Shown in pieces: positions 7,760-36,926 of a stretch of 64,000 nt of DNA (positions are counted from its first letter, which is position 1; every line of letters begins with the position of its first letter). The position numbers were made by a program, and so were the translations under genes. Where the stretch lies: positions 301,974-365,973 of the forward strand of contig CAJNOJ010000062.1 in the NCBI GenBank assembly GCA_905250025.1, in the 5' to 3' direction. Origin of the DNA: Adineta ricciae. Lineage: Eukaryota. The notes beneath the pieces were generated by a model. It ran no database searches. It was given only the letters and a program-made list of their open reading frames with translations, and was not told where the DNA came from.

Positions 7760-10614
7760 GAATGAACATTATCAATAGTGAGAGGAAAGCTACTTGGTTG
7801 TCGTAATTCCAGGTTTGTCTATTATTTCCATTGGAACATTTCTGTAGTTTAACAACCGTGTTTGCAATAGCTTCCAAGCAGAGATCATCAAAACGAAGTT
7901 GTCCGTTCTTGGAGTGGATTAAAATCTATGGAAAATGAAAACATCTCAGCAAATTTCATGATAATCTTAAACTAAAGTGTGTAAATAGAAAGAAAACGTA
8001 AATGTAATAATGTGTTAGTTTCGATTAATATGTGAAAATATTTGAAAACAAACATGCATCGATTTGAAATTTCTGATCTACTCGATCTTTCGTTTGTATT
8101 CAAATCTGCTGCATTTCAGATTTCAAATACGACATATGTTTTCATGCAAATCAACCTGTGTTCTATTCTCAGCTAGGAAGACAACGGCAAACAATCATGC
8201 AAAACGGAATAATGCAGATTTTCTTTTACATGCTCTATTTTCCAACCTGATTTATCGCTGTCAAAGGTGAATCTGTTCGATCCAAACAGCCTTGCATGTG
8301 AAGTGCAGCTGTATGATTTGTCTTTTGACTACTGAATCCATTACGAACAGTCAGGCAACCTCTCAGTTCGTTACGTATCTAAAACAAATCGAAGAAAACC
8401 GATTAATATACACACCTGATTGGTACTTTTATGTTGACAAGGAGAAATGCCTGCGTTTTGATTCGCTCCATTGTCAACATTATAGCCCAGTGAATCAGCA
8501 CAACCGAATCCTTCGTTTCTTAACTAATTAATGTGAGAAATAGAGGTTGCAGATAAGATAATAAAATTCAATCTAAATGATGACCACAAGAATAAAGAGG
8601 AATAGACTCACCGCTCCGACGTGGTGGAAGTGTATCGGCATTGACGTTTCAGGATAGATGTTTTCTAGGTACCATTGAAAATCTTTACATTGAAGTTGTT
8701 TTCGTAACTGAAGACGTTCAGATACATCACCGGCTTCCACTCGTTTCAAGTCTATATGAATAATCAGGATGCTTGAGGTCAGTAACAGAAGAATACGAAC
8801 CAGGCATAATTGTGTAAATGAAATCTTTGTATTTATCAAGCCATACTTCTACAAGTCGTTTGTTGTTATGAAAGATTACAGTTCCTGTACCACCAGGAAA
8901 TGTGTATGGCGTTTGTTTACGAAAAACATGACCAACATGACTACCTGGAGGAATGAAAAGAAAACGAAAGGAATTTGATCACATTTGAAACTGAATACGG
9001 ATGGACTTACATGGATGGATGAGAACTTTGCCACCACATTGCCATACACGAAACGACATTTCCAAATTTTCACCACCCCAGACTTCCATACCCGGATCAT
9101 AAGCTCCTATTTCATAAAAATACGCCCGATTAATTGTAAACAAACCACCAGCCATAGTTGGAGATCTATGAAATCGTAAATAAGATTTATCTAGGAAGAT
9201 CAAGGCTTTTTTCGTACAGTAATGGAAGTGAATGATCATTATTTCGTCGAATTTCCTCTCGTTGTGGAACTGGATACCAACGAAAATTCAATCTCCAATT
9301 AAATCCACCCTGAAGAGATAAGAGTTCCAAAACATTAACTTCAGACATGGAATTTTTAACGTACCCAGGTCATGTCACTACCAGTTAAATAAGCAAAATC
9401 GTTATCGCTAATGACATCGATAATCGGACAGACAACTGCCGATCTAAAGAATAAAAGTCAATTCTTCATGTGGTCAGTGCAAGGTAATATCATGCCTATC
9501 TTTTTTCACTTCATACAATAAATATTCCAGCCAACCAGGTGAACATTCGATGTGTGCATCGAGAAAAGTCAATGTATCGCCCGATGCTACTTCAGCACCT
9601 GAAATCCAATGAGAACAATTTTACATGACTGTACTAATCGTATGTGACTCTATACCTCGCAGACGAGATTTCATAAGTCCTAGTCGATCATTATTTCTTA
9701 GTACATGAACTGATACTGGCAAATTTTTTATGAATGTTTCCAATGTATCTTTTAAATATACTAAAAAAAAAGAGTAATTAAAATAAAAGAAATGGAAATC
9801 AAGTAAATGCTTTACCTCGATTGACACTAGCATCGTCGACCAAAATAATTTCTTTTATATATTTTATTGGACTGCGCAGTATGATACTTGTTAATGTACG
9901 GAGTAATGTTGAATTGCCTTCATTATGAAATACAATAACTATTGATGTAGTTGGTAAATCATCTGGAAATTTATGCGATAAGCAACTACAGTGGAAAGAA
10001 ATGAGCTTTTTTGTCAAATGAAAGTGTATATATACCTCGGTGATCGTTGATCTCTTATTGTTCGATTTAGAGCGACAAGGTCTGAAGCAAGAATATTAAA
10101 TTGGTTCTCTAAGAAACGCCGTTTTGCTTCTGATTGTAAGTCAGCAGGTATGACGACCGCACGACCACCTTCACCATGCCAATTAGGTGGATTGGTTGCA
10201 CCTAATATAACGAAAAGCAAAACAGTCTATTTTATTCTTCAGTTTATAATTCAAACCTGGTTCAATTTCCCACCATCGACGAATAGCATTTGTCTTAGCT
10301 ATGACATTTGCTATTCCATCGCCAAATCGTGTTCTATTTCGATATTTTCTTCGATTGATACCCATCGTTGGCTGTACTGGAAGACTATGATGAACTGTAT
10401 ATGAATGATTATCAACTGATAATGCTGAGGTTTGCGGACAAGGAACAATAATTTTTTTCGTACAATCAGAGAATAACATTATAAAAAACACGTCAATAAA
10501 TATCCAAAATAACGATGTATATATAATTATATGCAGATATTGTCGTTTCCATAGTCGAAAACGTTTGAATAGAATATCACTTGGCGTTGATTGATAAGGT
10601 GAGAAAGGATTCAT
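7760..10614 (-). CDS. Polypeptide N-acetylgalactosaminyltransferase (ppGalNAc-T, GT27), type-II membrane protein with C-terminal ricin-B lectin domain
   Basis: ATG at 10614 (MNPFSPYQ...) with signal-anchor [26 protein letters not shown] core exons [30 protein letters not shown]...ILVDDAS (9799-10017), [19 protein letters not shown] (9621-9833) and [15 protein letters not shown] (about 9480-9600). Gal/GalNAc-T motif exons [26 protein letters not shown] (8979-9239) and [21 protein letters not shown] (about 8840-8960). Ricin-B QxW exon RQTWNY at about 7790-7920. 3' end approximate. Confidence 0.8.
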
Positions 10615-25187: not shown

Positions 25188-26232
25188 ATGGCAGCCGGCG
25201 CGCATATGGCTGCAACACAACAAGCAGCTGATGACCAAGCATCGTCACTTTATTTTTCTGGTATCTGTCAAACAATATCAGTTAAATGTCAACATAGAAA
25301 TGAAAATGGTTTATTAACATGTTCAAGAAATCTCTACGTTTCGTGTAAGTTTTATTTTCGTTTGCTTTACAATAATCACCTGTCATCGTATTATGTTGAA
25401 ATTTCAGGTCCACATTGTCATTTACTACTCTGTATTGATCATATTCACGAACATGAAAACTTACTACGATACGAAATTGAACAATTAATCAATGGTAAAA
25501 TGAACATCATGTTGTCTGTTTTCTGTGCTAATCTATGATTTTCTTCTGCTAATAGAAACAAATATTGTCAAAGCAAATATTCGTGCGTTGTTAACAACGT
25601 CTCAGCAACAACCATCGTCGACTACGGCGCAAGTGCTCGACGAAAAACAACGTACACTATGTGAATTACTTGAACGATGGGCTACAGTGGGAAAAATTTC
25701 TATGTCACAAGCCGCACTCATTCAACATCAATGTGGTTATATTAGTCAAACTACCCAACAGCAAGCAGCTACAGCTGCTTCGACTGCGGCCGCTGCTGCT
25801 GCTGCTGCAGCTGCACTTGCTGCTGGAACAACTAACCATCATGTTGCTCATCATACAGTTCCTGCACAGCAAAACGGCACTGGCACAACGAATCCAAATA
25901 AACTTCCATCACATCATCAGCAACATCATACAAATAGTGGTGGACATGCAAGTCATCATCAAAATAATTCACATCATCAAGATCGATCGTCACAACAATT
26001 AGCAGTCAATGTTGTGAAGAAACGACGAAGTGGGAAGAATAAAATTGTTACATTGTTGATGAAAAACGCCGAAGGAGAATACGAATGTGTAAGTTGTAAA
26101 AGATAAGAATATCTAATCTCGAATAATCATTTCTTTCTAGCCAAACGTTCAATGTCGGAAGTCTCTCAAATGTCAAGGAATCACGGCACACGTCAAAGCT
26201 TGCGCAGTCGATTGGTTGAAAGAAAACGGGCA
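25188..26232 (+). CDS. Low-complexity Gln/Ala/His-rich protein (possible nuclear/transcription-related), at least 3 exons
   Basis: ORFs at 25188-25340 and 25525-26106 (QQQ, AAAAAAAAA, HH runs, KKRRSGKNK basic patch, ...YECVSCK then donor gtaagt at 26089) and 26140-26232 (PNVQCRKSLKCQGITAHVKAC..., stop). No confident family assignment. Confidence 0.3.
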
Positions 26233-27076: not shown

Positions 27077-30000
27077 ATGGGTGTGCTAAGTTCCCCGTTG
27101 AATGGCAAAACATTTGTGCTCGAACTTGGTCGAGATGTTCGTTTTAAAGCTAAACAAGAACTAATTAATTATCTACGTGAACAACATGCTCAGATTTCGT
27201 ACATTTTAACAGCTAGTGTAGGTTTTTCTTCTCCCTTGAACTCTCTTCCTCTCCGAAAATCTTCATCGATTAAACTTCATTTTACTCTAGACGGATTATG
27301 TTTTGGTTTCGAATGATATTGACACGTATAAAACTCGTCGAGCAAAGCAGCTCGGCATTCCATTGGTGAACGTTGATTATATTCATGAATATCGTAAATC
27401 AACTATTGGAAAAGAGTCAATTGACATCAAACGATTCATTGTTACATCGGCCGAAGATAAAGAAAATTTCTCCAAAACTGGCACCATACCAGTTGCAGGT
27501 TAATAGATATTGTCTTTGCAGAAAATTTATGTTAATGAAATGTTTCATTTCATTTCATTTCAGGAGGAGGCAGTTCGTCAAGTAGTGTAGTAAAACCTGT
27601 AAAATTTGATGTATCGAAAGTTAGGATCTGGAATCACGATGACGTTGAATTGCCGCGTTTTGATGAAATAACCCACGCTGAAATCGGTAAATGGGCCATT
27701 TTTAAGGTATAAATGTTTAGGAAACAGAAATAGATGATCGAAGTAGCATTGTTTTGTTTTTCGTTTGATAGGAAACAAATGATCATTCGGATGTTTATTT
27801 TGCTCTTGAATTACAAATTATTCCGGAAGAATATTTTTATCAGCAAGCGAATAGTGATTATCAATTTCGTTTTCGTTACGAAAAGCAGACCATCGTCAGT
27901 TCAAAAGGAAAAACGTCAGTTATTCAGTATGCATTCAGTAACGATATCAATGAATTGCATCAATTATTTGCATCTTATTACTATCGTATTGCAACAATGC
28001 CTCGAATAACACGCATTCGAGATTTATTACCTGATAAATTGGGTTCGAAATTGCTGTTACGCGTAAGTTGTTGAACAGAACGAATTCTGCTTTCGGACAG
28101 ATGGGTTCTTCCATTTCAGTCATTGTTTCTGCATCGAATTGACACACAAATGCTTAACGATGATGTTTGTCAGCTGATCGAGTCACTTTGGATCGAATCT
28201 ATTGGAGATTTGAACAAACTTCTAACTGTTCCACCTGAATCGATCGCTTTGAAAGCAGTATGAAAATATAGAAGGAGAAAGTGTAATGAGCTCTTTGAAT
28301 ATTTTCCGTAGATTATTGAAGCTGAGGCAGCTTTACTGGAAATCAAATCAAACGATGAATCAGCATCAGAAGCGCAAACGCGTTTTTACTCACTGATTCC
28401 TCATCGACAGCCGCATGTCGTCGATCTTGTTAAAAATCGACGAACTTTGATTGACAAAATCGATTTGTGTCAGGTAAAGTATGAATTTTGAAACTGTTTT
28501 TTGGTCAGACTTCGAATTGTAGATGTTACGTGACATGCTTACTATCAATGAATTGACAAATTGGAATATTAAAGCATCGATCGAAGCGAAATATCGTGCA
28601 TTGAAATGTCACATTGAAAGTATTGAGAAAGATAGTCATGAGTATGCCACAATTAATAGTATGATACATTCGTCCACGAATTCGTATGTATTTTGATATC
28701 TGATGGAGAGATGTCGATATATTTCCCTTGCGACTCTTGTAGGAACGAAGAAGTTATCGTTCATCAGATTTTCAGCGTTGCTAAACAAACCGATGCGTTG
28801 AATTTTCGTTCGACACTGTTCAATCAACGACAACTTTTTCATGGTTCGAAATACAATAATTTTCTGGGCATTCTGTCACGGTAAATCATCGATTCGTAAA
28901 AGCTATTCTGTTCAATTTTCATTTCTTTCTATGCTTTCAGTGGTTTAATGTTGCCGAAATTGGTCGTCGATGACTTGGGAGTGACTCGTACTGATTTCGG
29001 ATGTCTCGGATATGGAATCTATTTTTCGGATTCGGTTTCTACATCTCTAAAATACACAACACCGAGTACAACGCGTCCTGGTCGCCGATTACTATGTATA
29101 TCTCAAGTAGCATTAGGTGAATCAGCGAAATACTATTCCTATGCAGCAAATTTAACACAAGCACCCGAAAATTTCCACAGTACACATGGGATAAAGAAGA
29201 CCAGTGACAATAATTCGAAGTTTATTGTAAGTATACTTCTTGTTATTGTAGGCAAATTTTCAAAATGGACTATTTAGGATGACGAATATGTTATTTATAA
29301 TCTTGACCAACAGCGATTATTGTATATTGTTGAAGTTTCATGGAAACCACATGATAATACCGATCAAGTATTGAAAGTATTACCGATTGTTCGTGATTCT
29401 TTACTTAATCAACTTCATAGCATGAAAAGTGAAAGTAAATGAAGAGCTTTGCACAACTTATCTTCGTTTAACATGACTTTTCCAATTTTGTTTTGTAGTC
29501 GTTGTACCATCATCAATCGAAGATGAAGTAATTCAAGTAGCCGAACAAGATTATGGTTTAATTTGTCCATCATCTGGTCAACTGGTTCCATTGAAAGCGT
29601 TCCATATTCGTGCTCAACTTGTCGATGTAACTGCTGAAGTATGTGGAATGATTTTCTCCTTTCAGTTCATCTTTTCTACAAAATACTTCTTAGGTTGTTC
29701 TCTACCAAGTTTATCACAACACAAGTTCAGTGCCGATCGAAGCCAAATATGTATTTCCACTGGATGAGAACTGCTCCGTTTGTGGTTTCGAAGCTCATAT
29801 TAATAACAAAGTTATCAAAGGTGTGGTCAAAGAAAAGGAACAAGCAAAACGTGAATATCGTGAAGCAATTGAAAAAGGTCATGGTGCGTATTTGATGCAT
29901 CAAGAACAACCTGAAGTGTTCAGTGTGTCCGTTGGTAATCTACCAGCCAATTGCGAAGTGGTCATCAAAATTACTTATGTCGCCGAATTACCTATTGAGA

Positions 30001-31934
30001 ATAACGATATTATCTTTCGTTTTCCAGCCAAGGTAGCTTCATGGCAATCGAAGCAAGCTCTAGAATCGAAGGATCAAACCATACTCCCGTCCATTAGTCT
30101 TGAACGAGATGATTCGCTAATGAAATCGGTAGAGTTTAGCTTGAAAGCATCTGTGCGCATGCCGTATGAAATCAGTAAATTATTCTCTCCAACACATCGT
30201 CTTCGTCGGAAAGTAACCGATTGTGTAGCGATGATCGAAATGGTTGACAACGTTCTCTTAGACAAAGATTTTCTTCTCTCGATAGCACTGAAAAATATCA
30301 ATGTACCACGCATGTTGAACGAAACATACACTGTTTCTGATGAAAATAATAACGTTGAGATGAATGATGAACAATCTCAAGCGTGTATGTTGACATTTTA
30401 TCCAAAATTCGAAATGACAACTAATACGAATGAATTCGTGGAAGTTATTTTCATTATTGACGTGTCGAACTCGATGGATGGACAGCATGTACAACAAGCC
30501 AAACAGTTGGCACACCTATTTCTAACAAACATGAAAAACGACGATGCAAACATTTATTTCAATATCGTTACATTCGGATCAGGTAACTTATCGAATGTTG
30601 AAAACTAATGCAAGTTGTTTTTCATCATTTCATAGATAATGATGAATGTTTTCCAATTTCCTTACCAAATACAAAGGAGAACATCGATAAGGCAAAGCAT
30701 TTTGTTCTGGTTTGTATTGTTTGTCTTTTTTTTTAAATGTAATACTTCTTTTAATGTTATAGCATTCGCTTGATCATCGTGGTAATACTGATCTTTTCAC
30801 TGTACTTCGTCAGTATTCTCTTTTACCATCTCCATGTAAACTTGGCCGACAATTTATTCTTCTCTCCGACGGGCATGTCAATGATCTGAATTCGATTCTG
30901 ACTTTACTAGAAAATCAATCGTCTATGAAACATGATCGTTTCTTTACCTGTTCAATCGGTGACACATCAAATAAGCATCAACTCAAACAACTAGCTAACG
31001 GAGCACATGGCGGTGGACTGACCACTGTGTTTGATTCAAACTTCCGTTCACGATGGAAATCAAAAGTTCTTCTCATTCTCGAACATATTCGTCAACCATG
31101 TGTAACCAACATATCAATTGATTGGCATGGAACTATCGAAAATGAACAGGTGAGATTTACCAATCAAGCACCAAATATAATCCGTTCATTATTCAATGGT
31201 ATGCGTTTAACTGTGTATCGTTTCATTCAAAATTGTCATAAAGCCACCTTGACAGCAATGATTAACGATCAAGAATTTGTTACTACTGTGTTTAGTAATA
31301 AGATGACTGAAACAAAAGGACGAATTTTACATTGTTTGACTGCACGTGCGATTATACATGATTATGAAAATGGTTTGTTGCATACCGATGAAAGTGAAAA
31401 CGAGCTGATCAAAAAACAATATAAACAAGATCTAATTGATTTAAGCGTAAAATATTCAGTCGTCAGTTCATTTACAAGTTTTGTAGCAATCGAAGAACGA
31501 GATCGTGATGAAGTACTTGAACCAGGTAAGACATATTCTTCGAGGCCGAATCAAGCAATGCCTTTTTTGTCTGTCATTTAGGTGTTCGACTACTTGATGT
31601 AATGCTTGAATCAGATATTGATCTATTACCATATATTGGCTGGGATGGTGATCGATCCCAAATAGAGATAGTGAAAGAGAAGCTATTGAATGCCAAACGT
31701 TCATTTGAAAATGCTTCGATTTCGAACAAACTTGAATTAACTCAGGAGTATGAGAAACTTTGTCAAAATATATCGTACCGGTCGGGTGGTGATGCTAAGT
31801 ATGATTTAATGCTAGCAATTATTGACACGTACCGAACAACATTGAAAGATAATAGTAAAGCGTTGGAATTGGAAGAAAAAATTCAACTTGGTAAACTTGA
31901 AAGTACTGTCATTGATTGGTGTCGACTGATTTAG
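27077..31934 (+). CDS. PARP4: Vault poly(ADP-ribose) polymerase, PARP4/vPARP-like: BRCT - PARP catalytic - VIT - vWA - C-terminal region, many exons
   Basis: ATG at 27077 with BRCT-like exon (MGVLSSPLNGKTFVLELGRDVRFKAKQELINYLREQHAQISYILTASV). PARP catalytic signature across 28690-29300 (LFHGS..., GIYFSDSVSTSLKY, LLCISQVALGE, catalytic-Glu region DEYVIYN). VIT domain at 29730-30060 (VFPLDENCSVCGFEAHINNKVIKGVVKEKEQAKREYREAIEKG). vWA with MIDAS motif at 30440-30600 (VIFIIDVSNSMDG), continuing at 30660-31581. C-terminal exon 31602-31934 (stop TAG). A further possible terminal mini-exon 31949-32045 could not be settled. Confidence 0.8.
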
Positions 31935-32051
31935 CCTTTTGTAGAACTATCGAATGAAGTAAAGAGCGCAACGGCTGACGAACGGAAAATACTAGAGAAA
32001 CGTCTGGCAGAAATCAATGCACGTATTAATATGGCGGAATCGTAAATAAAA

Positions 32052-35000
32052 ATGACGAAAGAGAAAGAGTTCCTAGGAATATTTTTTTATAGAGAAATTT
32101 CGTATGACAATAGCGAAGATGAAGAGAGTGGGGAAGAAGACGAAAGCGGTAACGAACATCTTTCTTGCTTAAAGATTGCTTGCAATACAAATCTCTTCAA
32201 TATAGACGATGAATGGTGTGACGAGGGCGAAAGAGAGTGTCTAGTAAGTTGTTTTGGTTCACAGAACGAAAAAATCTTTTATGAACTAACTTATTGTCGT
32301 TTCTTTTTAATCAAAGAGTCGATCGTATTCTCTTGACGAAGGTATGTTAATATGTTTGAAAATATTCTTTCAAATGATTTATTTTGTGAATATTTTCTAG
32401 AGAGAAAAAAAGATTCTGATGTAATTGATCGAATTGAATGCCACATCGCAAGAGCAACTTCACCAGTTAGAGAGTACTGTACATCTCCTGGAGCAGATGA
32501 TTATGATGATGCTGATGATAGTGATGGTGATGTGGGCTGGGATCTCTTTGAAGCTGATAAGTCTGCGTCAGTTTTGTTAACTAGCTTGAGTGAAGTGTCT
32601 AGACCTATGAAGCCAACTGCAGCTGCAGCAGCAGCACAGCCGGTTGCTAGCAAAGAAAAAGGCAAGAAGGAAGCCGAGGAAGAGGATGACGAGGATGCAG
32701 ACTGTATGGGCTTCGGTCTGTTCGATGATTTTTCACCGCTTACATCACTTTCTCCAGTAAATCGTCACAAACAGGATGCGCAACTTGACAAAGCTGTGGA
32801 TCCATTTGCAACCAATGCTCGCCGTTTAATGCCAGATATAGAAGAACATTCACTAGAAATAGGTGAGAACCTTTCACGAAACATTTTTTTATTTCTACTC
32901 ACTTTAATTTTCATATTCATTGATAGCAATGCCCGCTTCTAACGCGCTTGTGACACCCAAGTCGAAATCTATGATCACATCACAAGAAAAGATACAAGTA
33001 CCTACTAAAAAGGATCGTAAATCAGCAATTGCTTCTATAATAACAAAAAAGGCAGTCTTAGATGATAAAGAAAGTACCACTTTTACCGAAACACAATTCC
33101 CACAACAACAACAACAACAGCAACAAATTCCAATGAACCCTTTCACATTCCCTCAACAGTCATTTTCGTTTGGTTCTACAAACGCAAATTCGTTGTTTTC
33201 TAATCAAGGCGCTGTGCCCACAGTAGCACAGTCAACACCATTCTACAACAACACCGCTGCACCACCCTTACATTCATTCACAGCCTTCACATTCAACAAT
33301 AATCAACATTATTCTTCCTCACACCCTGATTTACCATCACCTCGTCAGACTACTACTACTGGGACATCTTCATTTGGTACATTGGAAAATGCTGCGTCTA
33401 CGTTTTCTTCGCCAAACTATTCACCATACAGTCCTTCTTATCCAAATCAAAGCAGTTCGTACACTAGTGTACCTCCACCGCCGCCATCATTCGCTGTACC
33501 CGTACCTTCTGGACTGTTTGGTAGTGGCACAAGTAGTACAAGTAACTTATTTGGTGGCTTCATCGCACCAGGATTATCAGTACCACCACCACCACCACCA
33601 CCTCCACCTTCGCAGACTTTTGGAATGTTTGGTGGCTTCGCCGCGCCAGGATCATCAGTACCACCACCACCACCACCTCTGCCTCCATCTTCGCCGACTT
33701 CTGGACTGTTTGGTAGCTTCGTGGCACCAGGATCATCAGTACCACTACCACCACCACCACCTCTGCGTCCATCTTCGCAGACTTCTGGACTGTTTGGTAG
33801 CTTCGTGGCGCCAGAATCATCAGTACCACCACCACCTCCACTTTCGCAGACTTTTGGAATGTTTGGTAGCTTGGTGGCGTCAGGATCATCAGTACCACCA
33901 CCTCTGTGTACATCTTCGAAGACTTCTGGACTGTTTGGTAGCTTCATGGCGCCACGATTATCAGTAGCACCACCACCACCACCACCTCCACCTTCGCAGA
34001 CTTTTGGAATGTTTGGTAGCAACTTAGCATACGAGGGTGTACCTTCTGTATCAAAATCAGATAATGATAGCTCACGGTCTTCAATGAAATATTCATTTTC
34101 GCCTAGTATTTTTGAAAAAGCACAGGAAAACGACGCGCTAAAGTCTGTGCAAACTAGCTGGATGCAACCATCAGGGCGAGGCAGAGGCAGTGCATCTCCG
34201 AACGCAAGCGCTCGATTCTGTGATGTTTGTATAGAAAAAATAGCGTTGGAATTTCGTATGATTTTTGTTTCATTGTAGTTACGCAACGATCGTAGTCGTA
34301 CCGACTCGATAGAATCTATTACATTCGACCGGACAAGTAGATATGATGATTTATGTGCCAGAAAGAAATCAAAATCTAAATTGTACGTATAGTAAAGAAA
34401 TCGCCTGTATACTAACCGGAACGTATTTATTTATTCGTTTTAGGAAGCTCGAGTCGACAAAAGTTAGCGGCCATGTTGAAGATCATGCACAAAATCTCTT
34501 GCTACTTGATGTTACACCACTTAGTTTAGGCATAGAAGATGTCAACGGTGAAATGTGTACAATTATCAGTCGCAATCGTACAATCCCAACGAGATCAGCA
34601 GTCTATTCTATATTCACTAATGCTTATGCCTATCAGACGAACGTTGTCATTCGTGTTTTTCGTGGTGAACATAGACTGACGAAATACAATGTAAGTAATA
34701 CTTTTAGATAATTACAACGAAAACTGTTTTGTCTTCTCTGTAGACTTTTATTGGTGAACTGATTTTGAAAGGCGTAACATCGAATTTTGCTTCACAAACA
34801 TTACAGATCTCAATTTTCATGGATATCGATGCGAATGATTGGTTTGAAGTTCATGCAGAAGAACCCCGATCAGGTGCTAAAGCAATGATTAGAATCGATC
34901 TAAATAATTGTAAGAATCTCTAATTCGAAAACTGTCGACAATCTTCGATTATTTTGTAGTTAAACTCAGCGCAGTTGATATTGAACGGCATTTGAACTAC

Positions 35001-35760
35001 GTCGAGAGTAACGCTGATCACAAAGCTGCGAATTTTGAATACGCACAAGCGAATAACAATCGATTCATGGTTAGAATTACATTTGAAATCTAGATATTTT
35101 GAAAAGTTCTGTTCATTTTAGCTCAAAGGTGATACTGAAAACACGTCCGTTAGTTTTACAGGCGGTACAGATGATTTAAATAATCTTCTTAACTTCCAAC
35201 GACCAAAAAGTCTCACATTAACTTCAACAGTGATAAATGAATTGAAACGAATTCAATTACCCAACGGATCATTCGAGATCAATGAAGATTTCGCGAAGTT
35301 ATTCTCGTTTCCAATAGAAAACTTCGATAAGCTTAAGAAATATTTCATTTCACAAGGTTTCAACTCATTTGGTAAGTCTAAACCTCAACGAAAAGAGTCA
35401 TTCACCATTAATCACTACCTTGTAGCTTTGAGTGTACAAAAGGATATCATGCAACTGATTGCCACTGGTATCGTTCTTCTACAATTGTTATTCCAAGTGC
35501 CAGTATCAGAACGAAAGGAATATTTAGTTCCATTTGATAGCGAACAAATAAAAGTAAGGAAACATGAATGTTTCCCTCGATAGATTTCGATTGTTTGTTT
35601 ATTTTTAGTCGATTTTTCATGGTCATTTGCCAAAAACTTTAATAGAAAACGCGAATAAAATGGTTGATTTTTATAAACAAAAGCGTTCACAGTGTGGAAT
35701 TTATTGCGAACAATTAGAATTGAAATACTCATCATGGGAAAAATTCATCCAGTACAGCAT
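32052..35760 (+). CDS. Chimeric-looking gene: acidic N-terminus, Pro-rich FG-like tandem repeats, then an Hsp70 substrate-binding domain (SBD-beta and SBD-alpha) with no nucleotide-binding domain, plus C-terminal extension
   Basis: ATG at 32052. Exons 32052-32243, 32312-32336, 32386-32871 (acidic, DDYDDADDSDGD) and 32920-34220 (Q-rich, then 7+ copies of SGLFGSFVAPGSSVPPPPPPP). After small exons, an exon starting about 34441 reads KLESTKVSGHVEDHAQNLLLLDVTPLSLGIEDVNGEMCTIISRNRTIPTRS...VIRVFRGEHRLTKYN, aligning to the Hsp70 linker+SBD (DLLLLDVTPLSLGIET...RNTTIPTK...VYEGERAMTKDN). Next exons are FIGELILKGV...ISIFMDIDANDWFEVHAEE (Hsp70 LGKFELTGIPPAPRG...VTFDIDANGIL) and KLSAVDIERHLNYVESNADHKAANFEYAQ (Hsp70 GRLSKEDIERMV... 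lid). Extension to about 35583-35760. Whether all exons form one transcript is an inference. Confidence 0.55.
33540..34020 (+). repeat. Coding tandem repeat of about 80-90-nt period, at least 7 copies, encoding poly-Pro + (S/T)GLFGSF / TFGMFGG motifs
   Basis: Recurrent DNA unit ggatcatcagtaccaccaccaccacc...tcttcgcagacttctggactgtttggtagcttcgtggcgcca seen directly at 33575-34020. Peptide unit GSSVPPPPPP(L/S)PPSSQTSGLFGSFVAP. Confidence 0.85.
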
Positions 35761-36388
35761 ATTCAATATCGAAAACTGATTGAACGAATTCATTTTTCTC
35801 TTTTAACCCCGAAAACATTTTTCACTTTGAAATAAATATTCTAATACAACTAAACGTGTGTATCCACACATCTACGTTCTTATTCTTATCAAGGGTTACC
35901 AACAAATTCGATATCGTACGTCGTACGTTTCGAATACTTTGTTTAACATAAAACCTGGTATCTGGATGTCTAGTTTTCACTCTCTTTTGATGAATACGAA
36001 TTTCTGGCCTAAGTACTATGATAAGAAAACGGTAATAATTTTCAGCCTACATTACGAGAACTGATATGATATTCGCATTCATTTCCAGGCTCATCCAACC
36101 ATATATCGTTATCACAACATGTTTTCATTCTCTCTCGTATATCGATTCACAGGCAAAAACGAATACTGACAAAGAACGATCTGTGCACGTATCGATTCTA
36201 TTCTCTTTCTCTATCTTTTTTTTCTACTATTCGCGATAACTCGCTGTATAAAAGGAGGTATGTTTAGCGTCTTTCTTTCACTTCTTACCTCATTTTATCA
36301 TAGATCCGTTTTCGTCGAATCAGTAAGTGAACAGTTCAGCGCAAAGAGCGTTTTCCACAAATGCATGTTGACTTTCTTCAGATTCATA

Positions 36389-36926
36389 ATGCAAGCCAGC
36401 CCTGCCCTTGAAAAACTTAAAGGTACCTGGGAATACGTCGATGGTGAACACTTCGACGATTACATGAAAGAACTCGGTGTTGGTTTTGCTCTTCGTCAAT
36501 CAGCCAAATTAGTCAAACCAAAATTAATCATTCAGGAAAATGGAGGTAAATGGTCACTCAAAAGCGAATCAACACTCAAATCAGCTTCATACGAATTTAA
36601 ACCTGGCTGCGAATTCGATGAAACACGTCTTGATGGTGAAAACGTCAAAGTAAGTTCAACCAGAACGCTTGAATTTCATCTTTTCTATTTCCCTATCGTT
36701 CATTTAGTCCACAGTTAAATTTGAAAACGACAAATGGGTACACACCATGCGTGATAAGAATGGTAAAGAATCAACAATCACACGTTGGGTTGATGAAAAT
36801 GGTCAACAACAAATTGTATGATACCATTCGATTTGTGGAATCATGATTATTTGATTATTTTCTCTCACATAGGTAATGAAAGCTGGTGATGTCACCGCTC
36901 GTCGTTGGTACAAACGTGTCGACTAG
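36389..36926 (+). CDS. Fatty-acid-binding protein (FABP/iLBP family), 3 coding exons: 36389..36649, 36708..36815, 36873..36926
   Basis: MQASPALEKLKGTWEYVDGEHFDDYMKELGVGFALRQSAKLVKPKLIIQENGGKWSLKSESTLKSASYEFKPGCEFDETRLDGENVK | STVKFENDKWVHTMRDKNGKESTITRWVDENGQQQI | VMKAGDVTARRWYKRVD*. The iLBP signature GxW...F(D/E)xYMKxLGV...TxRQ and the C-terminal R.Y.R are present. Donors GTAAGT at 36650 and GTATGA at 36816, acceptors tttag at 36707 and cacatag at 36872, phases consistent. About 140 aa. Confidence 0.88.

Follow-up and report, generated by a model that had tools for sequence, protein, structure and literature searches.

PARP4, the vault PARP, is docked on the inner wall of the vault, near the waist, by its MINT (MVP-interaction) domain, which corresponds to residues 1562 to 1724 of the human protein, and proteins fused to MINT get packaged into vaults (PMC12280208). 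In a survey of PARP4-like architectures (PMC4245714), proteins from amoebae, Capsaspora, lancelet and sea urchin have additional C-terminal 14-3-3, actin or ubiquitin-related domains. The function of vaults, the choice of their cargo and the role of PARP4 inside them have been a long-standing puzzle over decades (PMC12280208, PMC4245714). Here we analyze a stretch of 64,000 nucleotides of the bdelloid rotifer Adineta ricciae (contig CAJNOJ010000062.1, positions 301,974 to 365,973 of the forward strand), hereafter "the window", to which all nucleotide positions refer. The window is AT-rich eukaryotic DNA (GC content of approximately 0.35) with very short introns. A preliminary description of positions 32052 to 35760, made from the sequence alone, had proposed an independent gene combining an acidic N-terminus, FG-like and poly-Pro repeats and an Hsp70 substrate-binding domain (SBD) lacking the nucleotide-binding domain (NBD). 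From the gene structure and sequence identity described below, we are highly confident that this region is the 3' half of a single PARP4 orthologue gene.

The whole gene, modeled with PARP4 models of Rotaria as guides, extends from position 27077 to 35779 of the forward strand (27 exons, 2402 amino acid residues, no internal stop). Its introns are 49 to 73 nucleotides long (median 55) and all of the GT..AG type, with GC contents of 0.39 in exons and 0.30 in introns. A polyadenylation signal (AATAAA, 35831 to 35836, forward strand) is found 52 nucleotides past the stop codon. The predicted protein exhibits the following order of domains (nucleotide spans include introns): a BRCT domain (27089 to 27386, residues 5 to 79; Pfam E-value = 5e-5), the PARP regulatory and catalytic region (28318 to 29337, residues 310 to 576; E-value = 6e-26 for PARP and 8e-5 for PARP_reg), a VIT domain (29591 to 29978, residues 640 to 750; 8e-38), a vWA domain (30441 to 31011, residues 905 to 1059; 2e-13 for VWA_3), an acidic region (residues about 1366 to 1580), a disordered region rich in Q, FG and poly-Pro (about 1640 to 1945), the linker, SBD-beta and lid stub of Hsp70 (2059 to 2217, by Pfam) and MINT (about 2260 to 2392, by profile match to human PARP4). 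The VIT and then the vWA domain directly follow the catalytic domain, as expected of a PARP4. The H-Y-E positions of the PARP active site look intact by eye (LFHGSKY, GIYFSD, DDEYVIY). The part from PARP to VIT is 41-47% identical to proteins named PARP4 from corals (Desmophyllum, Acropora), frogs, a lemur (Eulemur) and birds, and the region after the vWA domain exhibits 46% identity to shark. Within this gene, the forward-strand segment from 32052 to 35779 provides a clean set of GT..AG exons, the product of which has one significant Pfam domain, Hsp70 (PF00012).

The reading frame of this segment continues that of the PARP4 exons upstream, across two conserved introns, and for this reason an independent gene is unsupported. 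The first intron (31891 to 31944, forward strand, 54 nucleotides, phase 1; G/GTAAAC...TTGTAG/AA, the slash marking the splice site) has a junction that is also found in Adineta steineri (locus L001). The second (32042 to 32092, forward strand, 51 nucleotides, phase 2; donor TC/GTAAAT) has an intron-like GC content of 0.25, and its splice-site scores (donor 6.3, acceptor 8.8) lie within the ranges of the gene's other 23 introns (4.4-10.1 and 3.6-12.7, respectively). Splicing it out gives the in-frame sequence …RLAEINARINMAE-S-EISYDNSEDEE…. Three other loci have an equivalent intron, identical in codon position and phase: the A. steineri orthologue (L001, donor TC/GTAAGT), Rotaria sp. Silwood1 (L004, donor TT/GTAAGT) and a Rotaria magnacalcarata paralogue (L002, donor GA/GTATGT). 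Database models from Rotaria (P0121), A. ricciae (P0299) and Didymodactylos carnosus (P0301) read through its junction.

The 3' end of the gene exhibits the domain characteristic of PARP4. The last three exons (35122 to 35779, forward strand, with the stop codon at 35777-79) encode a flexible linker followed by the MINT domain, also called MVP-ID; the SBD sits about 40 residues upstream of MINT. A profile of the approximately 180 residues following the SBD (alignment A1, with the window sequence in its first row) had a single significant match in the PDB, residues 1575 to 1697 of human PARP4 (E-value = 1e-4), which fall inside the human MINT domain (1562 to 1724). A comparison of the rotifer domain with the C-terminus of shark PARP4 by hhalign gave a probability of 77% (E-value = 2e-5). 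Pairwise BLASTP between the C-terminus of the window protein and shark PARP4 detected no match, so profile methods were required. The Pfam library that we scanned did not include the corresponding family, PF26156 ("PARP4 MVP-ID"), and MINT was identified by profile comparison; a PF26156 assignment is precomputed for three bdelloid paralogues (P0004, P0006, P0007). The ratio of nonsynonymous to synonymous substitution rates (dN/dS) of MINT is 0.21 between the window and A. steineri, at a dS of about 1.1-1.2. A C-terminal extension of the vault PARP, the last alternative listed in the preliminary description, is thus favored, and the region after the SBD, which had gone unrecognized there, is the MVP-interaction domain of PARP4.

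The Hsp70-derived module is encoded by three exons (34444-34690, 34744-34909 and 34960-35069, forward strand), which follow an exon for a short basic linker (…RKKSKSK, 34279 to 34382, forward strand). It comprises the interdomain linker (LLLLDV), a complete SBD-beta and a stub of the lid. The start of its first exon, previously put at about 34441, is at 34444, and this exon opens 14 codons before the linker sequence NLLLLDV. As had been anticipated, the match to Hsp70 is confined to the SBD part (positions 379-533 of the 599 of the PF00012 profile, E-value = 2e-24). The best PDB sequence matches are SBDs of Hsc70, Hsp70 and DnaK (E-value of about 5e-22), covering residues 378 to 524 of Hsc70, from the linker to the first lid helix. 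The absence of an NBD was likewise borne out: tblastn with two full-length Hsp70 sequences gave no match other than the SBD exon on either strand of the 64 kb. SBD-beta was correctly read, whereas the alpha-helical lid that had been described with it is only a stub, with helix A and the start of helix B according to both Pfam and the structure model. Among the hallmarks of Hsp70, the linker and the SBD-beta pocket are thus present, and the full lid and the EEVD motif are absent, the protein ending in …FNIEN.

The identity to cytosolic Hsc70/Hsp70 over the SBD is about 40-44%. In a sequence alignment, the positions I403, F428, Q435, V438 and I440 of bovine Hsc70, which belong to the peptide pocket in the DnaK and Hsc70 structures, are identical in the rotifer sequence. 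The arch pair A406/Y431 is replaced by V/A. An AlphaFold2 model of the A. steineri orthologue had a mean predicted local distance difference test score (pLDDT) of 41 with a shallow alignment and 73 after canonical Hsp70s were added. It shows a beta-sandwich (pLDDT 85-91), short helices, a disordered stretch of about 30 residues and a helical C-terminal domain. By Foldseek the sandwich superposes on the SBDs of DnaK, BiP and Hsp70 with a root-mean-square deviation of 2.7-3.0 Å over about 145 columns. In 12 aligned sequences, many columns of the SBD do not vary. Motifs specific to the family (FTNAYAYQ, NFxxxTL and SGAK) and the linker LLxDV are likewise invariant. The dN/dS of the SBD is 0.27 between the window and A. 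steineri, at a near-saturated dS (about 1.1-1.2), and the domain is conserved in two paralogue groups, both of which are found in Adineta and in Rotaria. A cytosolic Hsc70-type gene was the source of the Hsp70 piece, the insertion of which is lineage-specific, and purifying selection maintains the SBD in all three genera (Adineta, Rotaria and Didymodactylos) and in each of the two bdelloid paralogue groups.

The closest proteins in the databases are all from bdelloids, namely A. steineri (62% identity) and several species of Rotaria, and all of them are without an NBD. A protein of A. ricciae (P0299, 2063 residues), named "Poly [ADP-ribose] polymerase", exhibits PARP, VIT, vWA, HSP70 and BRCT by Pfam, and one of D. 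carnosus (P0301, 2098 residues) exhibits PARP, VIT, vWA and HSP70; both end in a MINT-type sequence as judged by eye, this family being outside the Pfam library scanned. The Didymodactylos contig (L003) stops short of the tail, which is seen through P0301. When a hidden Markov model profile of SBD+MINT was run exhaustively against 1.84 billion representative proteins, the two domains occurred together only in Rotaria, Adineta and Didymodactylos. High-scoring two-stretch hits from Jatropha, Toxocara, Daucus, Striga and Salinigranum were taken as ordinary or duplicated Hsp70s from their source names, which were of the Hsp70 family or uninformative, and from the SBD being the best-matching stretch, and two DnaK-type sequences with duplicated SBDs (P0017, P0021) were rejected as relatives. 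No Hsp70 domain was found in the PARP4 models of shark (P0145) and catfish (P0381) that span the tail. A PARP-VIT search, which mostly returned truncated models, returned no PARP4 of monogonont rotifers. The insertion is therefore present in all three bdelloid genera sampled and is dated no more finely than that.

As a whole, these observations are best explained by a single PARP4 gene with an inserted Hsp70 SBD that may act as a peptide clamp in the vault lumen, an overall reading to which we assign a probability of roughly 0.72. One study of Adineta vaga reports MVP genes with induced expression following irradiation and rehydration (PMC10809525), and bdelloids accordingly have a putative vault partner. 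MINT would anchor the protein at the inner wall of the vault near its waist. The SBD, being immediately upstream of MINT, would be tethered in the vault lumen. Since it has no ATPase and lacks most of the lid, it would be a constitutive, ATP-independent peptide clamp (holdase) with fast exchange. Its ligands would be extended hydrophobic stretches of client proteins, and cargo would in this way be recruited or retained beside the ADP-ribosyltransferase. The capture of client hydrophobic segments next to this enzyme is the likeliest role that we can put forward for the SBD, although we hold it to be somewhat less probable than not. The retained hydrophobic residues of the pocket fit a predicted clamp, and rotifer vaults probably carry such a built-in, ATP-independent device.

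Several points weigh against this reading. The homology to vertebrate MINT is remote (E-value = 1e-4; 77% by hhalign), and the binding of the domain to rotifer MVP is putative. The splicing of the intron at 32042-32092 is predicted from its conservation, from the quality of its splice sites and from the gene predictions of other genomes. A mini-exon of 25 nucleotides (32317 to 32341) within the acidic exons is uncertain, with an acceptor score of only 0.1. The structure model was made of the A. steineri orthologue, not of the window protein. Loop L3,4 is remodeled to NAYAYQ where Hsp70 has TYSDNQ, and the specificity may accordingly differ from that of Hsp70, or peptide binding may have been lost. 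Finally, the LLLLDV linker is strongly conserved in a protein that has no NBD, which a pure cargo clamp would fail to explain.

This last point would be accounted for if, with the same single gene, the ligand of the SBD were PARP4 itself: either the conserved LLLLDV linker or hydrophobic FG segments would be bound, within one molecule or from one PARP4 to its neighbor. PARP4 would thereby form a cross-linked meshwork with gel-like properties, or its tail would be auto-inhibited inside the vault. Lid-truncated BiP offers a similar case, its oligomers arising when one molecule clamps the interdomain linker of another. Four linker residues (L5, L6, D8 and V9) are invariant in a family without an NBD to dock them; lid-truncated oligomeric BiP (PDB: 7a4u, 7a4v) is among the structural matches; the SBD is adjoined by an FG-rich disordered region, with 13 FG dipeptides where 2.3 are expected from composition, and four GLFG; and human vaults contain several PARP4 copies with long disordered linkers (PMC12280208). 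However, the sequence of the FG/Pro repeats is poorly conserved between species, so that no specific internal ligand is evident, and the conservation of the linker may merely reflect its packing against strand beta-1. Overall we consider self-binding possible but rather doubtful.

Leaving aside self-binding, the clamp reading could be extended to the remainder of the tail, which contains other motifs resembling known binding sites. The acidic exons (32093 to 32862, forward strand) keep an open reading frame by either path around the mini-exon: with it, or with one intron (32244-32402) in its place, which is likewise in frame; a single intron at 32244-32400 was rejected as being out of frame. 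The acidic sequence DDYDDADDSDGD noted earlier is indeed present at 32496-32558. This first acidic motif, DDYDDADDSDGDVGWDLFEAD (forward strand), is a weaker copy of a second segment, KPTAAAAAAQPVASKEKGKKEAEEEDDEDADCMGFGLFDDF (32610 to 32732, forward strand), which resembles the C-terminal tail of the ribosomal P-stalk. All 28 PDB sequence matches of the latter segment are to P0, P1 or P2, at their extreme C-termini. The best is to residues 280 to 317 of human P0 (E-value = 9e-4), with MGFGLFD identical and with the Ala/Pro hinge and the acidic run aligned. The Pfam family Ribosomal_60s matches the segment with an E-value of 7e-5 and 23.8 bits, below its gathering threshold of 28.1, and the segment is internal and compositionally biased. 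This match covers profile positions 50-88 of 88 only, the N-terminal dimerisation and uL10 domains of stalk proteins being absent. Weaker stalk-like copies exist elsewhere in the window (…GDVGWDLFEAD) and in the orthologues of A. steineri, Rotaria and Didymodactylos, in all of which the first acidic motif recurs. Neither the A. ricciae paralogue nor fish PARP4 has the stalk-like motif. The stalk tail of ribosomes is a handle that recruits translational GTPases. Ricin-type toxins also bind it (PMC6162817).

Downstream, a long exon (32927 to 34224, forward strand) encodes the disordered region, with a poly-Q run (33102-33126), a sequence resembling the C-terminal domain (CTD) of RNA polymerase II (YSPYSPSYP, at about 33409-33447) and FG/GLFG and poly-Pro repeats (33550-34020). 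The preliminary description had counted at least seven copies of the repeat; Tandem Repeats Finder confirms the array as a 78-nucleotide unit in 6.1 copies with 80% matches (33550 to 34020), and by eye there are six full units and one partial unit. No nucleoporin family was found in Pfam scans of the gene product, and the flanking domains are those of PARP4. Runs similar to the CTD heptad occur in the same disordered region in the window (the above YSPYSPSYP) and in Didymodactylos P0301 (SPTYSPTSPTYSPTSPTYS).

Judged from these sequence resemblances, the tail seems to have been put together from short, borrowed binding motifs, and the P-stalk-tail copy, the FG repeats and the poly-Pro runs suggest that the whole tail may serve as a multivalent scaffold for cargo recruitment. 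Taken further, bdelloid vaults might be protein-holding compartments, with the PARP4 tail as a string of borrowed modules drawing clients beside the ADP-ribosyltransferase. Unfolded or hydrophobic segments would go to the SBD; the stalk-tail copy would attract translational GTPases (eEF2, eEF1A) or divert stalk-binding toxins as a decoy; and the FG/GLFG repeats would either bind transport receptors or make up a cohesive phase. We regard this wider proposal as improbable. If it were true, the vault would gain a concrete mechanism of cargo selection, possibly tied to survival of desiccation and radiation.

A different partition of the locus would have PARP4 end at the TAA at 32043-45 and a separate acidic/FG/SBD gene begin at the ATG at 32052, the two being perhaps co-transcribed and resolved by a spliced leader. 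Bdelloids use spliced-leader trans-splicing. The in-frame stop and the ATG are only 6 nucleotides apart, and several database annotations have a separate SBD-containing protein. This is, however, very unlikely. The triplets read earlier as PARP4-like stops 118 and 6 nucleotides upstream of the ATG are both intronic: the TAG at 31932-34 is inside the first of the two introns described above, and the TAA is part of the conserved donor TC/GTAAAT of the second, the position and phase of which are common to four loci. The ATG, proposed as the start of a separate gene, lies within this same intron. Conservation is lacking for this ATG and for the first 14 codons of the supposed gene, and an ATG is missing altogether from the A. 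steineri intron. No AG acceptor is present between the TAA and the ATG. The split annotations begin at differing, non-homologous points. In A. steineri, the upstream annotated gene (1857 residues) passes the junction into the Pro-rich repeats and ends only at a gap, a run of N inside the Pro-rich repeat (about 9900-9940 of L001) that splits the public annotation into proteins of 1857 and 543 residues, and the annotated "SBD gene" begins just past this gap. In addition, P0299 and P0301 are single proteins, and the MINT domain at the end of the supposed second gene belongs to PARP4.

A decaying Hsp70 paralogue or functionless exon debris captured by a neighboring gene, as the loss of the NBD, the cut lid and some remodeled loops might suggest and as the preliminary description had allowed, can be dismissed with near certainty, given the intact reading frame, a dN/dS of 0.27 at near-saturated dS, the maintenance of the module in three genera and two paralogue groups with FTNAYAYQ, NFxxxTL and SGAK invariant, and the confidently predicted beta-sandwich.

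Some features were observed beside the main subject. Phase-2 introns with a GTAA donor generate an in-frame TAA right after the exon, which is a systematic trap for readings based on open reading frames and for gene predictors in these genomes; the gene model of the Rotaria locus L004 terminates at such a GTAA-type donor (9779-9784). The annotation lesson is that, in several published rotifer annotations, the PARP4 gene has been fragmented by false in-frame stops from phase-2 GTAA donors. A long open frame upstream of this gene (25504 to 26103, forward strand) exhibits Gln/Ala/His runs, a basic end (KKRRSGKNK) and a Cys-containing motif, and probably represents one exon of another protein, of regulatory type. 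The next gene downstream (about 36260 to 36720, forward strand) encodes a lipocalin/fatty-acid-binding protein and is found in the same place in A. steineri L001 and Rotaria L004, two loci that have in common the order PARP4-like gene, SBD gene and lipocalin/fatty-acid-binding protein gene. VIT/vWA sequences of PARP4 type are joined to EF-hand (calmodulin-like) domains in four models from Rotaria and Didymodactylos (P0130, P0139, P0142, P0143), in one from the mussel Mytilus (P0424) and at positions 545-16293 of L003. These could be annotation chimeras with a neighboring gene or a real architecture of a PARP4-like paralogue.

Literature searches on PARP4 with Hsp70 SBD, on PARP4 with P-stalk and on bdelloid with Hsp70 and vault returned no description of this architecture, and the novelty that the preliminary description had foreseen for an Hsp70 SBD in PARP4 stands within the literature searched. 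Proteins of this architecture are already in public databases, but as unnamed predictions that are often fragmented. What is new is a PARP4 orthologue with a lineage-specific insertion of an Hsp70 SBD. A natural PARP4 with a chaperone peptide-binding domain beside the vault anchor bears on the question of how vaults choose their cargo. Cases in which selection preserves an Hsp70 SBD without the ATPase domain are rare, and this one is informative on what an SBD can do alone.

The rotifer tail can be compared part by part with better known systems. With FG nucleoporins it shares FG/GLFG repeats in a disordered region, without a nuclear-pore anchoring domain or homology to nucleoporins. It resembles the C-terminal tail of the ribosomal stalk proteins P0, P1 and P2 in an Ala/Pro-rich hinge, an acidic run and the exact MGFGLFD; in contrast to these, the rotifer motif is internal, within the PARP4 tail, with no free C-terminus and no stalk dimerisation domain. 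The oligomers of lid-truncated BiP (7a4u, 7a4v) also have an SBD without the full lid, which can clamp a hydrophobic interdomain linker in trans, but BiP retains the NBD and control by ATP, and the equivalent self-binding in the rotifer is hypothetical. Cytosolic Hsc70/Hsp70 of the HSPA8 type shares with the rotifer module the linker LLLLDV, the complete SBD-beta, the pocket residues and lid helix A. The rotifer module differs in its remodeled loops (NAYAYQ, NFASQTL, RSGAK) and in being without the NBD, most of the lid and EEVD, and is therefore unable to run the ATP-driven chaperone cycle.

At the level of the whole protein, the PARP4-like proteins with 14-3-3, actin or ubiquitin-related domains likewise have a lineage-specific interaction domain on a PARP-VIT-vWA core. 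The rotifer addition is of another kind, an Hsp70 SBD in a bdelloid protein that retains MINT, an architecture not listed in that survey (PMC4245714). Vertebrate PARP4 (human PARP4; PDB: 9bw6, 9bw7, 11jf) is alike in its BRCT, PARP-homology region, VIT, vWA, long disordered region and MINT, to which the rotifer protein adds the Hsp70 linker and SBD-beta before MINT and the P-stalk-tail-like and FG/GLFG motifs, reaching 2402 residues against the 1724 of human PARP4. A parallel to the proposed arrangement is engineered vault cargo fused to the MINT/INT of PARP4 (PMC12280208), in which a folded module is directly N-terminal to MINT and for which carriage in the lumen is expected likewise. Unlike those constructs, the rotifer fusion is natural, and its passenger would itself be a binding module.

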